A stretch of 7,686 bases of DNA from a virus (IMGVR_UViG_2740892258_000007); one strand, 5' to 3'; shown: positions 1,006 through 6,620, counted from the first letter of the stretch. Made by a program: numbers and translations. Notes: generated by a model from the letters alone, not told the origin.

Positions 1006-1536
1006 ATGTTATACCGAGATCTTTTGCCTATTTTCTCAGAAAGACCCATATTTAAAGCTCCTGAGGCTGAAAGAATACTTCGTGAGCAATATTCTATCGC
1101 CGCCCCCACTCCTGTAATTCAGGAGATTTATTATGGATTGGCAGGTTATGACAGATTTCAGGAGCTTTATGGGGATCTTAATATTGACCAAATCGAATGG
1201 AAATTGATTGAACTTCCCACTAAAAATTTTTTAACTATCGGGGATAATGCTACTTACCCTGATTTTTTGCATGAGGTCGTTGAAGATTTCACAACCCGTA
1301 AAGGCGATGTATTTATGGATGATGAAATAAAAGCGCATTGGTGTAATTTTGGCACATGGTGTGAACCTCCATTTTTTATAGATCGAGCTTTGCTGAAAAG
1401 TAATACAACAGGGCTTCATTTAATGGAAGGGCATACAAGAGTTGGAACCCTGTTAGGGGCAGTTAAGTATAACTTCGTTAAGCTTGCTAATACTCATAAA
1501 ATTTATTATGCGCAAGCAAAAGAATGTATTAAATAA
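1006..1536 (+). CDS. Hypothetical 176-aa protein, AT-rich moron; possible ParB/Srx-like fold (weak)
   Basis: GGGGA 5 nt before ATG 1006; uninterrupted ORF; clearly more AT-rich than the flanking Q and methyltransferase genes; followed by an intrinsic terminator. Segment PPFFID...TGLHLMEGHTRVGTLLGAV loosely resembles the strand-DGHxR-helix core of ParB/sulfiredoxin domains. Confidence 0.55.
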   Translation: MLYRDLLPIFSERPIFKAPEAERILREQYSIAAPTPVIQEIYYGLAGYDRFQELYGDLNIDQIEWKLIELPTKNFLTIGDNATYPDFLHEVVEDFTTRKGDVFMDDEIKAHWCNFGTWCEPPFFIDRALLKSNTTGLHLMEGHTRVGTLLGAVKYNFVKLANTHKIYYAQAKECIK

Positions 1537-2061: not shown

Positions 2062-3123
2062 ATGAAAAACACTGTAAAAATAAACAGTATTGATTTAATC
2101 AACGCTGATTGCCTGCATTTTATTCAGTCCCTGCCTGATGATTCCATTGACCTGATTGTTACCGATCCGCCTTACTTCAAGGTGAAACCCAACGGTTGGG
2201 ACAATCAGTGGAAAGGGGACGAAGATTACCTTAAGTGGCTGGACCACTGTCTGGCCCAGTTCTGGCGGGTGTTGAAACCTGCCGGAAGCCTTTACCTGTT
2301 CTGTGGGCATCGCCTGGCATCTGATATTGAGATCATGATGCGTGAACGTTTCAACGTGCTTAACCATATCATCTGGGCGAAGCCGTCCGGACGTTGGAAT
2401 GGGTGTAATAAAGAAAGTCTGCGCGCATATTTTCCTGCCACAGAGCGCGTTCTGTTTGCTGAACATTACCGGGGGCCATATCGCGGCAAAAGTGACGGCT
2501 ATGTGGCAAAAGAAAGGGAACTCAAACAGCACATAATGGCACCGCTGATATCGTATTTCAGGGATGCTCGTGCCGAACTGGGTATAACGGCAAAACAAAT
2601 TGCCGAAGCCACAGGTAAGAAAAATATGGTTTCCCACTGGTTTGGTGCCAGTCAGTGGCAGTTGCCGAATGAGGCTGACTACCGGAAGTTACAGGCACTG
2701 TTTTCCCGTATAGCGGCAGAGAAGTTTCAGGAACAACAACTGGAACAACCACACCACCAGTTGGTGGCATCTTATGATTCACTGAATCGCAAATATTCTG
2801 AATTGCTGGATGAGTTTAAATCTCTCCGGCGCTATTTCTCCGTATCAGTCTCCGTGCCTTATACCGATGTCTGGATGCATAAACCCGTTCAGTTCTACCC
2901 GGGTAAACATCCGTGTGAGAAACCGGCGGATATGCTCAGGCAAATAATCAATGCCAGTAGTCGACCCGGCGATCTGGTTGCTGATTTCTTTATGGGATCC
3001 GGTTCCACAATAAAAGCAGCAATGGCGCTGGGGCGTCGGGCGTTAGGTGTTGAGCTTGAGACAGAGCGGTTTAATCAGACCATCCAGGAAATCAGTATGT
3101 TATCAGCAAATACAATTTTGTGA
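2062..3123 (+). CDS. Orphan DNA methyltransferase, beta-class N6-adenine/N4-cytosine family (DPPY motif, probably N6-adenine), 353 aa
   Basis: Motif IV DPPY near the N-terminus (LIVTDPPYF) and AdoMet motif I near the C-terminus (DFFMGSGST), the circular permutation typical of beta-class enzymes. No restriction endonuclease partner in the window. Weak SD. Confidence 0.85.
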   Translation: MKNTVKINSIDLINADCLHFIQSLPDDSIDLIVTDPPYFKVKPNGWDNQWKGDEDYLKWLDHCLAQFWRVLKPAGSLYLFCGHRLASDIEIMMRERFNVLNHIIWAKPSGRWNGCNKESLRAYFPATERVLFAEHYRGPYRGKSDGYVAKERELKQHIMAPLISYFRDARAELGITAKQIAEATGKKNMVSHWFGASQWQLPNEADYRKLQALFSRIAAEKFQEQQLEQPHHQLVASYDSLNRKYSELLDEFKSLRRYFSVSVSVPYTDVWMHKPVQFYPGKHPCEKPADMLRQIINASSRPGDLVADFFMGSGSTIKAAMALGRRALGVELETERFNQTIQEISMLSANTIL

Positions 3124-3365
3124 ATTAATTCAATTATTGGTGGGATGTCTGTGCCGTATAATGATTACAGATACAGTGTATCCTGCAATGCAGCAGGGCT
3201 GATGTGGTGGGTTGTACATAGCCTGCAAAGGATTGGCTTCATTAATTCATCGTTGATACAAGCGAGTCACGGTTGACCACGCCAACGGCTCATCGGTAAA
3301 AATCCGACACCGTGTCTTCTTAACTCACTTATTGTTTCCACCCATGTTTTTGGATACCTGCTGTA

Positions 3366-3404: not shown

Positions 3405-3565
3405 ACAACGAATCCTTCTGATCTGCTTTTGCGGGGCTTTTTTGTATCCGCTCCATGCCCGGCGTATAAGCGGAGGTTGGTCAGTTTTCTAAAAATTGAA
3501 ATACCTCACAATTCAGCCAGTTAATGGTTGTTTGTCTGGCGAAGAGTTTGTAAATAAAAAAACGC

Positions 3566-3720
3566 ATGGTGAATCCCCCTAAGCGGCGGGGCGAATCAGC
3601 AGTCAGTTCTGGGATAATCGCGGGTTCGTATGCTGATGCCGGACTCACCGGGAGGCACCCGGCACCATGCATCATGGTCATCCCCTTGTATGATACCCCT
3701 CTCCGGAGGGGTATTTTTTG
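3566..3720 (+). ncRNA. Candidate structured small RNA (~155 nt) ending at an intrinsic terminator
   Basis: GC-rich block with no credible ORF. Long-range closing stem gcatggtg (3564-3571) / caccatgc (3665-3672); internal hairpin ccggg-aggca-cccgg; terminator with 9-bp stem atacccctc (3693-3701) / gaggggtat (3706-3714) plus T5. Weak promoter candidate upstream (-35 TTGTCT 3532-3537, -10 TAAAAA 3555-3560). Confidence 0.3.
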
Positions 3721-3721
3721 G

Positions 3722-3790
3722 ATAAAAAAGCCCGCGCTGGGAGGCACGGGCGGCAAGGAATAAAACGTGAAGAAATTTTCACAGGCGCAT
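3722..3790 (-). ncRNA. Candidate short minus-strand transcript (~60 nt) with its own intrinsic terminator
   Basis: On the minus strand: -35 TTGCAA, 18-bp spacer, -10 TATTAT (reverse complement of about 3786-3820), then hairpin gtgaa/ttcac (3776-3791), then terminator hairpin gcccg...cgggc (3730-3754) followed by 6 U (forward A-run 3724-3729). It lies back-to-back with the plus-strand terminator at 3693-3720. Confidence 0.25.
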
Positions 3791-5612: not shown

Positions 5613-6186
5613 TTTTGCCAGCATAATTTTCTTCCAGCAATGCCGCCAGCCACTTGAAAGAATTTTGTTGTTCCTGGGACCATTTGGGGTTGCGTGATTC
5701 AAAATGAATGGATGCCAGCGTTGGCAGCATTTGCTCCCTGGGAATTGATAAGGCCAGATGTGAAAATGCAACAGTGAGGGCATTTACATCATCCCGAAGC
5801 CTGGAAATGCAGTCGAGCAACTCCTGTAGAGAAATGGTGCTATTGTCCATAAATAATCCTCTTGATTGTCTTTACCTTTTCCCCGCCTGATTCAACAGGC
5901 CGGGACAGATAAACATATCCAGGGTTCAGAAACCGATAAATCCTGATAAATATCCATGAACGCAAAAATCAAATACGGCCTGTCAGCTGCAGTTCTGGCG
6001 CTGATTGGAGCAGGCGCATCAGCTCCTCAGATACTTGACCAGTTTCTGGATGAAAAAGAGGGTAACCACACTACGGCATACCGCGATGGTTCCGGCAACT
6101 GGACCATCTGTCGGGGGGCCACGATGGTGGATGGAAAACCCGTTTTTCCCGGTATGAAACTGTCGAAGGAAAAATGCGACCAGGTC
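5356..6186. repeat. Tandem duplication, copy 2 (831 bp)
   Basis: See copy 1; ends inside the intact endolysin gene at codon 77. Confidence 0.85.
5578..5850 (-). CDS. orfB second copy (90 aa), about 15 amino-acid differences from copy 1, concentrated in the middle and C-terminal half
   Basis: Intact ORF with conserved RBS AGAGGA and ATG at 5850-5848; N-terminal 25 residues identical to copy 1. Confidence 0.45.
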   Translation of the reverse strand: MDNSTISLQELLDCISRLRDDVNALTVAFSHLALSIPREQMLPTLASIHFESRNPKWSQEQQNSFKWLAALLEENYAGKTTISAESSGNQ

Positions 6187-6489
6187 AACGCCATTGAGCG
6201 TGATAAGGCGCTGGCATGGGTGGAGAAAAACATCAAAGTGCCATTGAGCGAACCCCAGAAAGCGGGGATCGCGTCATTCTGTCCGTACAACATTGGTCCC
6301 GGTAAGTGTTTCCCGTCGACGTTTTATAAACGAATTAATGCAGGTGATCGCAGGGGAGCGTGTGAGGCGATTCGCTGGTGGATTAAGGACGGTGGCAGAG
6401 ACTGCCGTATTCGTTCAAACAACTGCTACGGTCAGGTATCCCGTCGTGACCAGGAGAGCGCGCTGGCGTGCTGGGGTATCGACAGATAA
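5956..6489 (+). CDS. R: SAR endolysin (phage lysozyme with N-terminal signal-anchor-release domain), 177 aa
   Basis: Weakly hydrophobic Gly/Ala-rich N-terminus LSAAVLALIGAGASAP; catalytic triad spacing E-x8-D-x5-T in EGNHTTAYRDGSGNWT. Pinholin plus SAR endolysin is the established phage 21-type pairing. No SD before the ATG. Confidence 0.85.
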   Translation: MNAKIKYGLSAAVLALIGAGASAPQILDQFLDEKEGNHTTAYRDGSGNWTICRGATMVDGKPVFPGMKLSKEKCDQVNAIERDKALAWVEKNIKVPLSEPQKAGIASFCPYNIGPGKCFPSTFYKRINAGDRRGACEAIRWWIKDGGRDCRIRSNNCYGQVSRRDQESALACWGIDR

Positions 6490-6581
6490 GCAGAATATTT
6501 TGCTGAAAAATAAGGCATGGCCACGCGGGCGGATAACATGAAATCCTGCGAAGTGGCGAAACGTAAGTGAATAAAAGTAAA

Positions 6582-6620
6582 AACCCCGTTTGTTGGCACC
6601 AAGCGGGGTTTTGTGTTTCC
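6582..6620 (+). terminator. Intrinsic terminator downstream of the endolysin
   Basis: Stem aaccccg (6582-6588) / cggggtt (6604-6610) with possible inner extension, followed by ttttgtgttt; A-run on the 5' side so it may act bidirectionally. Confidence 0.5.

Follow-up and report, generated by a model that had tools for sequence, protein, structure and literature searches.

Gene organization of the locus

The stretch of DNA analysed here, 7,686 nt of IMGVR_UViG_2740892258_000007 (hereafter, the window), covers the region of late control and lysis in a lambdoid prophage of Escherichia coli. The subject of this study is ORF176, an intact open reading frame (ORF) behind the antiterminator gene Q, together with the mobile cassette that carries it and the ParB/sulfiredoxin (Srx)-like fold predicted for its product. 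Many complete E. coli genomes contain the window DNA at 100% identity; in these, the ORF176 product is recorded as WP_000966854.1 and annotated as a hypothetical protein. The features of the region are as follows.

99–851, + strand: Q antiterminator gene (PF03589, phrog_127), which defines the slot
883–926, + strand: putative lambda-type late promoter pR' (–35 TTGCAT at 883–888, 17-nt spacer, –10 TAAGAT at 906–911, 6 nt, AACGATGGG at 918–926)
959–974, + strand: tR' hairpin CCCGC-6-GCGGG, homologous to the annotated tR' of the phages SfV and Ayreon
975–988, + strand: cassette-interrupted U-tract TTAAATTATTTTTT, in which the cassette starts after two T's
977–1606, no strand assigned: mobile cargo cassette (moron) with leader, ORF and its own terminator, GC 35.7%
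996–1000, + strand: Shine–Dalgarno-like GGGGA, G-rich, 5 nt upstream of the ATG
1006–1536, + strand: ORF176, 176 amino acids (aa), ATG start, a member of phrog_8867
1426–1440, + strand: predicted GxxR phosphate-binding (P) motif, codons E141-G142-H143-T144-R145, based on conservation and the model
1574–1594, + strand: the cassette's own intrinsic terminator, CCGCG-TTCT-CGCGG followed by T7

The GC content of ORF176 is 36.9% (28.2% at third codon positions) versus 47.8% for Q, 47.7% for the methyltransferase gene downstream and 46.5% for the window, whose lowest-GC 531-nt stretch falls within ORF176 and its 3' flank. The ATG start is supported by residues M1, Y3 and L6, which are invariant in 16 homologues. 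Read by eye, GGGGA is a plausible ribosome-binding site that matches the consensus in part. An earlier note on this DNA had described the gene as much more AT-rich than its neighbours, with its own Shine–Dalgarno sequence and its own terminator (stem at 1574–1587 and T7). All three descriptions hold, the match of the second being imperfect.

A cargo cassette inserted in the tR' U-tract

The borders of the cassette follow from comparison with related phages. Homology with SfV and Ayreon ends just past GCGGGTT (~976) and resumes at GCAGTACGG (~1607). SfV represents an empty site, with both flanks joined directly, and another cassette occupies the slot in Ayreon, mEp460 and the Stx2c and Stx2k phages. 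This other cassette encodes a 141-aa predicted lipoprotein (MKKVLIAAIGFCLVGC..., at 2771–3196 of the phage Ayreon locus L002; no Pfam match) and has its own terminator. The slot just behind tR' thus is a hotspot for cargo, of which at least three states exist: empty, with the lipoprotein gene and with ORF176. Among 5,426 complete E. coli genomes, the flanks were found in 1,456 and ORF176 in 90 (1.7%), always as a single chromosomal copy.

Presence or absence between conserved flanks, an own terminator and a deviant base composition are all characteristic of morons, and the earlier reading of ORF176 as an AT-rich cargo gene with its own terminator in the interval from Q to the lysis genes is borne out. 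A promoter of its own, also typical of morons, was not found: a search for sigma70-like sites on the + strand between 800 and 2100 gave none. For this reason, and as the cassette border lies only 29 nt ahead of the ATG, pR' (883–911) must be the source of transcription. The suggestion that ORF176 occupies the position of the Shiga toxin genes proved incorrect. In the Stx2k phage, stx lies ~2 kb farther downstream, after tRNA genes and in the same late transcript, and no tRNA genes, such as precede stx in Stx phages, were found in the window.

With the lambdoid morons (stx and the lipoprotein gene of Ayreon and mEp460) the cassette shares the conserved flanks after pR'-tR', the own terminator, the deviant composition and the existence of an empty site in a relative. 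It differs from them in its insertion within the terminator U-tract, in the lack of a detected promoter and in its cargo, which is a predicted cytoplasmic ParB/Srx-like protein and not a toxin or an envelope protein.

Promoter, terminators and expression

The layout of lambda pR' (TTGACT, 17 nt, TAAATT, 6 nt, AACGATGGG) is reproduced exactly in the window, and the 9 nt at 918–926, which comprise the start and the sigma70 pause element, are the same as in lambda. By analogy, we infer that 883–926 acts as pR'. The layout is kept though the Q of the window (PF03589) differs in family from the Klebsiella- and Hafnia-type Q proteins.

In SfV and Ayreon, T7 follows the tR' stem, and the d'Aubenton-Carafa terminator discriminant (d) is +26.1 and +24.4, respectively. 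Two independent scans gave d = –22.6 and –25.6 for the tR' hairpin of the window, and in a 95.9% identical allele tR' is more degraded still (d = –55). The cassette's own terminator scored +30.0 and +26.6, and a simple scan found it terminator-like on both strands. Given the values of –23 to –26 for tR' and +27 to +30 for the own terminator, the first efficient terminator after pR' probably lies behind ORF176. The earlier note had called ORF176 the first late gene after tR'. As to position this is right, ORF176 being the first ORF past 959–974; as to function it is doubtful, since the U-tract has been replaced (d = –23 versus +25).

Lambda pR' is activator-independent and active in lysogens. 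Because of this activator independence and the location of the terminator behind the gene, ORF176 may be transcribed constitutively at a low level in the lysogen as part of a ~680-nt "leader", if the scoring rule is a fair guide to termination.

In Hafnia-type loci, the gene starts 35 nt past Q, the interval contains no terminator, and a hairpin resembling tR' lies ~0.9 kb farther downstream. The late-control region of one Hafnia prophage (L010, 6965–8450) contains the family gene followed by a convergent 197-aa ORF with a hydrophobic N-terminus. The tR'-like hairpin, AAACCCGC...GCGGGTTT with a T-run, is located at 8425–8445 of this locus, and the stretch upstream of it resembles the 3' end of a Klebsiella-type phage Q gene. 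This suggests that the late-control region of L010 has been rearranged.

Protein family and selection

An exhaustive profile search covering 1.84 billion representative proteins (clusters at 50% identity) retrieved 286 clusters at E ≤ 1e-3 and 138 at E ≤ 1e-10, mostly of 165–185 aa. A word-indexed search gave ~20 clusters at 47–59% identity from Escherichia, Hafnia, Salmonella, Klebsiella, Citrobacter, Enterobacter and Kluyvera, and members at 20–40% identity span Proteobacteria, Actinobacteria, Firmicutes and Planctomycetes. A sample of 117 diverse members was used for the conservation analysis and for the Pfam and phrog tests. For all 117, phrog_8867 ("unknown function") was the sole phrog match. 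In this sample, P34, W112, W118 and R145 are invariant, Y55, W65, T117, P122, E141, G142, L149 and H164 are nearly so, and the block hLhEGHTRhGxLxG is retained across the family.

Between the two E. coli alleles, which are 95.9% identical, the ratio of nonsynonymous to synonymous substitution rates (dN/dS) is 0.33; all 12 replacements fall in residues 14–96 and none in 97–176. ORF176 is a real gene under purifying selection. Because of the family size, the conservation and this ratio, it is very unlikely that the ORF is untranslated.

In agreement with the earlier statement that ORF176 matches no named family, scans of Pfam (E ≤ 1), NCBIfam (TIGR00180 included) and PADLOC returned nothing for it. 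A Pfam scan of the 117 members gave scattered weak matches to CUE and DUF1281 and one real MMPL fusion, which are uninformative on function. Neither WP_000966854 nor phrog_8867 is mentioned anywhere in the literature searched.

Some members are longer than ORF176. About 15 of them (P0028, P0061, P0072, P0100, P0110 and others) have a conserved helical C-terminal extension of ~90 residues with the pattern W-x-x-V-L-x-x-E-x-x-P-F-x-x-W-L and without a Pfam match. Some others are extended N-terminally, one of them by an MMPL-like membrane segment.

Predicted fold and GxxR motif

The AlphaFold2 (AF2) model of ORF176, built from the 117-sequence alignment, is compact and confident, with a predicted local distance difference test (pLDDT) score of 93.6 and a predicted template modelling (pTM) score of 0.88. 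Residues 1–60 form a helical bundle (four helices, 3–55), and residues 61–176 form a ParB/Srx-like alpha/beta domain in the order strand 63–71, helices 85–97 and 106–115, strands 123–126 and 137–141, helix 143–154 and strand 163–171. The best Foldseek match to the model was a sulfiredoxin with ADP, and a weaker first model had already given the same fold matches. The figures of the fold-match table are listed below.

PadC: 6.1
pNOB8 ParB-N: 5.7
Sulfiredoxin (plant): 5.6
Sulfiredoxin (human): 5.2
BrxU DUF262 domain: 4.5
SbnI: 4.4
KorB: 4.3
SerK: 4.2

At the level of fold, the model of ORF176 thus resembles solved ParB/Srx domains above other folds. In the model, EGHTR is placed at the end of strand 137–141 and the start of helix 143–154. 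This is the site where the ParB/Srx fold bears its GxxR motif: GERR in ParB, GCHR in sulfiredoxin and GQQR in DUF262. Among the 117 members, R145 never varies, and at least 90% of them retain E141 and G142. According to a 2025 survey of ParB-CTPase-fold proteins (PMC12704722), mutating the GxxR arginine in such proteins abolishes nucleoside triphosphate (NTP) binding.

The two segments on which the earlier note had based its guess of a ParB/Srx-like core, PPFFID and LHLMEGHTRVGTLLGAV, are both present and form the most conserved portion of the family. Judged by the model and its fold matches, that guess is correct at the level of structure; it has no support from sequence profiles.

Comparison with known ParB/Srx-fold proteins

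ORF176 does not show the defining features of Pfam ParBc, sulfiredoxin, DUF262/GmrS/DndB or the canonical partition ParB, so the family is not assignable to any of these groups. For the canonical partition ParB, the set of features looked for also included neighbouring parA and parS. The likeness to sulfiredoxin lies in the core order (strand, helix, PP-containing strand, strand, G-x-x-R, helix, strand) and in being a soluble, single-domain protein without DNA binding. In contrast to sulfiredoxin, whose FGGCHR motif holds the catalytic Cys, ORF176 has His143 at this place, and Cys is not conserved in the family. ORF176 also differs in its extra 60-residue N-terminal helical bundle and in the absence of detectable sequence homology.

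With the N-terminal CTPase domain of ParB proteins (ParB, PadC, KorB, Noc), ORF176 shares the GxxR P-motif at the equivalent place. Unlike ParB, it is acidic, has no helix-turn-helix or dimerisation domain and no GERR box, and a reading of the sequence finds no ParA-binding motif (L/F/I)G(K/R)G(L/F/I). The NTPase domains of DUF262/GmrS proteins (BrxU, SspE, GmrSD) and DndB have in common with it an acidic-Gly-x-x-Arg motif (DGQQR or DGQHR versus EGHTR) and presence in defence-island contexts. However, these domains occur together with nuclease or DNA-modification modules, by fusion or as pairs, and are recognised by PF03235 or PF14072, whereas ORF176 stands alone and matches neither. SerK and SbnI, serine kinases of the ParB/Srx fold, illustrate that the fold can carry out small-molecule phosphotransfer without DNA; they are larger, two-domain proteins of metabolic operons, and ORF176 has neither sequence similarity to them nor a metabolic context.

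Position behind Q and the methyltransferase

The position of the gene was compared in 28 enterobacterial loci, namely prophage-derived viral contigs encoding a close or 50%-identical homologue of ORF176. In all 28, the gene comes directly after a Q gene, which ends 39–213 nt upstream. This Q belongs to either of two unrelated families, being of the PF03589 type in the E. coli group and of the PF06323 type in the others, where the proteins are 28–70% identical to the Klebsiella-type reference Q.

Downstream of the cassette, the window contains the following.

1718–1912: 64-aa ORF (phrog_331) with weak TrmB/MarR-like winged-helix matches
2062–3123: N6/N4 DNA methyltransferase gene (PF01555), two genes downstream of ORF176
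3535–3723, + strand: STnc100 small RNA (Rfam RF02076, 114.5 bits, E = 3e-25), between the methyltransferase gene and the holin gene

The STnc100 small RNA is followed by the holin, lysozyme and remaining lysis genes. The 64-aa ORF is kept with the flank in SfV, Ayreon and the Stx phages; no relatedness to lambda orf-64 was detected, though both have the same length and position.

The earlier note had drawn attention to the association of ParB/Srx-fold proteins with orphan phage methyltransferases. At this locus the link is not specific, because the PF01555 gene occurs within 4.5 kb in 15 of the 28 loci and is absent from the other 13, and because the same methyltransferase is encoded in SfV and Ayreon, which have no ORF176.

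Genomic contexts outside Enterobacterales

Related loci were collected with a 44-sequence alignment subset of the family. All-against-all BLASTP of the neighbours in 16 distant loci revealed no recurrent partner, and a conserved operon partner was accordingly dropped as a candidate. The annotated examples are listed by locus.

L008, 4340–11890: tight same-strand string of genes for an MmeI-like restriction-methylation enzyme of type IIG, the family member (its start codon next to the stop codon of the enzyme gene), a 426-aa protein (weakly LeoA-like), a 640-aa DEAD/PbeA-like helicase and a T5orf172 protein
L024, 6084–8531 (metagenome-assembled genome of Candidatus Accumulibacter): complete type II-A retron (PADLOC: NDT effector, 3.6e-78; reverse transcriptase, 3.7e-111)
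L030, 1–12486 (57-kb Vibrio parahaemolyticus plasmid pVPTW011): integron-like array with at least 16 attC-type TAACAAA...GTTA repeats
L007, 7001–8946, and L031, 5403–7831 (Streptomyces): genes for a DUF6042 protein and a small P-loop (AAA/zeta-toxin-like) protein after the family gene, with a GNAT gene before it in L031

The genes of the L008 string, the family member among them, could make up a defence operon. In L024, the family gene lies 86 nt past the retron with a type I HsdR gene nearby; the convergent downstream 1069-aa ORF is probably the type I restriction R subunit found in the pooled scan of neighbours. One further member is located ~0.9 kb downstream of brxL of a bacteriophage exclusion (BREX) system, with two small ORFs between and integrase genes following, and others adjoin an integrase, a transposase or a P4-type primase gene.

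In L030, the family ORF (5995–6498) is situated between the repeats at 5846–5982 and 6496–6588, as expected of an integron cassette. The other cassettes of this array encode RidA, a nucleotidyltransferase, ASCH, PLD-like, GNAT, NUDIX and DUF5677 proteins and a Phd/RelE pair. A preprint on integron-borne defence reports no ParB-like cassette. The members from Psychromonas and Thalassomonas are also located in arrays of small genes. Such arrays had suggested an immunity protein of a polymorphic toxin, a candidate that was rejected as no toxin gene is adjacent and the fold does not fit.

Streptomyces plasmids account for 20 of the 29 plasmid hits, several of them near record ends. The neighbourhood shared by L007 and L031 was the sole recurrent one seen and may merely reflect closely related plasmids. 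Among 2.9 million viral contigs there was one distant family member only, and the scarcity of distant viral members implies that only the enterobacterial branch is associated with phages in this way. The overall picture is of one self-sufficient gene carried as cargo by mobile elements and variable islands.

Proposed function and alternative explanations

ORF176 has an isoelectric point (pI) of 5.4 and a net charge of –6. The charge ranges from –1 to –11 in the enterobacterial branch, and the family has a median pI of 6.0 with only 7% of members above 8. Since the protein is acidic and the Pfam scan detected no DNA-binding domain, a ParB-like DNA clamp or a DNA-coating nuclease is not expected. 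Fold members that are single-domain or act on targets other than DNA (sulfiredoxin, SerK, SbnI) are ATP-dependent phosphotransferases, and those of the DUF262 and DndB type are NTPase switches. The polar set E141, H143, T144, R145, H164, Y55 and T117 around the GxxR motif looks like an active site.

Based on the above results, we tentatively suggest, as a possibility somewhat short of probable, that ORF176 is a stand-alone NTP-binding enzyme or switch that acts on a non-DNA target and has a role in conflict. The soluble, acidic protein would bind an NTP via GxxR (G142-H-T-R145), aided by E141, H143, T144, H164, Y55 and T117. The bound NTP would then be hydrolysed, or its phosphate passed to a non-DNA target such as a small molecule, a nucleotide or a protein, by analogy with the single-domain relatives sulfiredoxin, SerK and SbnI. 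ORF176 would act without a dedicated partner gene, because no partner recurs in the 16 distant loci and one member is a single integron cassette. Inserted in the tR' U-tract behind pR', the cassette would be strongly transcribed once Q antiterminates and probably at a low constitutive level in the lysogen. The role would most likely lie in conflict between phage, host and mobile elements (exclusion, defence or counter-defence), with partition or methylation being less likely. A wider claim, which we consider unlikely, is that phrog_8867 is an unrecognised, profile-invisible branch of the ParB/Srx fold working as a one-gene NTP-dependent conflict module that, in E. coli prophages, captured constitutive pR' transcription when its own terminator replaced the tR' U-tract. 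Such a module might be a new factor that acts as a single protein against phages or in exclusion, or it might serve counter-defence as an enzyme phosphorylating or hydrolysing a nucleotide or protein of host immunity.

It should be noted that a number of results weigh against this proposal. Neither PF02195 nor DUF262 matches ORF176 or any of the 117 members (PF02195 at E ≤ 0.1), and sulfiredoxins, taken as a positive control, do match PF02195. Hidden Markov model (HMM) searches of the PDB with two family profiles found nothing. Alignment of the family with hhalign, using whole, trimmed and C-terminal-domain-only family alignments against sulfiredoxin as the sole ParB/Srx family, gave a non-significant probability of 0.3–0.4%; the equally non-significant path pairs PPxF with PPID and EGHTR with GGCHR. 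No family in PADLOC-DB v2 matched ORF176 at E ≤ 1, and a known defence system lies within a few genes in only 3–4 of the 16 distant loci, a raw count from a small sample. The survey PMC12704722 found that 11 of 28 purified ParB-fold proteins bound any NTP and 17 bound none, and that NTP binding and specificity are not reliably predicted by sequence or AlphaFold3. With regard to expression, the simple terminator scan still calls the hairpin at 959–974 terminator-like, and Klebsiella-type loci have an intact tR' ahead of the gene (d ~ +23), so that constitutive expression would not be family-wide.

Other explanations were weighed against the same evidence. The protein might be a non-enzymatic binder that blocks or senses a host defence component or a phage protein, or an immunity-type protein, its contact surface being formed by the ParB/Srx-like scaffold and the conserved tryptophans, with no nucleotide chemistry. 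Its small size, acidity and single-gene state, often in arrays of unrelated small cassettes, recall many known anti-defence proteins, which are small and acidic; W65, W112 and W118 are invariant or nearly so, and the 17 ParB-fold proteins without NTP binding (PMC12704722) fit as well. We nevertheless find this rather unlikely, in that conservation is highest in the GxxR loop together with the Glu, His and Thr that flank it, as is typical of active sites and not of interfaces, no conserved toxin or partner gene is nearby, and a spread over four phyla is hard to square with one specific protein target. A ParB-like nuclease, cutting host or competitor DNA in lytic growth or incoming DNA in the lysogen, seems quite improbable. 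Osa and some "ParB-like nuclease" proteins have been reported to cut DNA, the conserved E141, H143 and H164 could bind metal, and the family is found in defence-island contexts. However, besides the charge of –6, a mostly acidic to neutral family and the lack of a detected DNA-binding domain, the ParB-like domain of BrxU, SspE and GmrSD is an NTPase and their nuclease is a separate domain. Moreover, an unregulated nuclease made from pR' transcripts would harm the lysogen by its toxicity, but 90 complete genomes stably carry the gene.

The ParB domain in phage ParB–methyltransferase fusions is thought to load or target the methyltransferase, and ORF176 might be a split-off partner of this kind, loading or targeting the enzyme encoded at 2062–3123 on progeny DNA. 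ParB–methyltransferase fusions are common in phages, those of a ParB-fold domain with PF01555 being enriched both there and in prophages (PMC12704722), and some T-dioxygenases are reported to require a phage ParB-like protein (PMC13229309). A PF01555 gene lies two genes downstream here and also in Hafnia prophages, and distant members adjoin a type IIG enzyme or lie just past brxL. We hold this to be very improbable, and the partner role was rejected on the locus statistics given above, with 13 of the 28 loci lacking the methyltransferase. In addition, the Klebsiella-type gene sits directly between Q and the holin gene, the cassette borders leave the methyltransferase outside, SfV and Ayreon have it without ORF176, no neighbour is conserved in the distant loci, and ORF176 is acidic. 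The probability that ORF176 is functionless, a spurious or decaying frame within AT-rich junk DNA, is practically negligible. Its AT-richness, "hypothetical" annotation, lack of a curated family and occurrence in 1.7% of complete E. coli genomes would fit, but full-length homologues exist at ~50% identity in six other genera and at 20–40% across phyla, the dN/dS is 0.33, the C-terminal domain is unchanged between the alleles and the AF2 model is confident. The conservation data refute this explanation.

Novelty and significance

The ParB/Srx fold itself, prophage cargo genes behind Q and ParB-fold proteins on mobile elements and prophages, where they are common (PMC12704722), were already known. 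New features are a ParB/Srx-like family that sequence profiles fail to see, the N-terminal domain and EGHTR signature peculiar to it, the strict rule of its position behind Q, and what may be a route to expression by terminator replacement. Since the survey started from PF02195, which the family does not match, phrog_8867 very likely remained outside it.

A family of at least 286 clusters has no Pfam, NCBIfam or PADLOC model and has been missed by the catalogues. Prophages, integrons and plasmids carry its members as single genes, with restriction, BREX and retron systems as neighbours, and in such places untested defence and counter-defence functions tend to turn up. The rule of position behind Q, together with the broken U-tract of tR', bears on how cargo genes gain expression at the late-gene switch, in the same late-control region that governs Shiga toxin release. 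If U-tract replacement acts as suggested, a cargo gene would be expressed in the lysogen without a promoter of its own. If NTP binding or a phage phenotype proves true, ORF176 would be a compact new type in the nucleotide-switch repertoire of the ParB/Srx fold.

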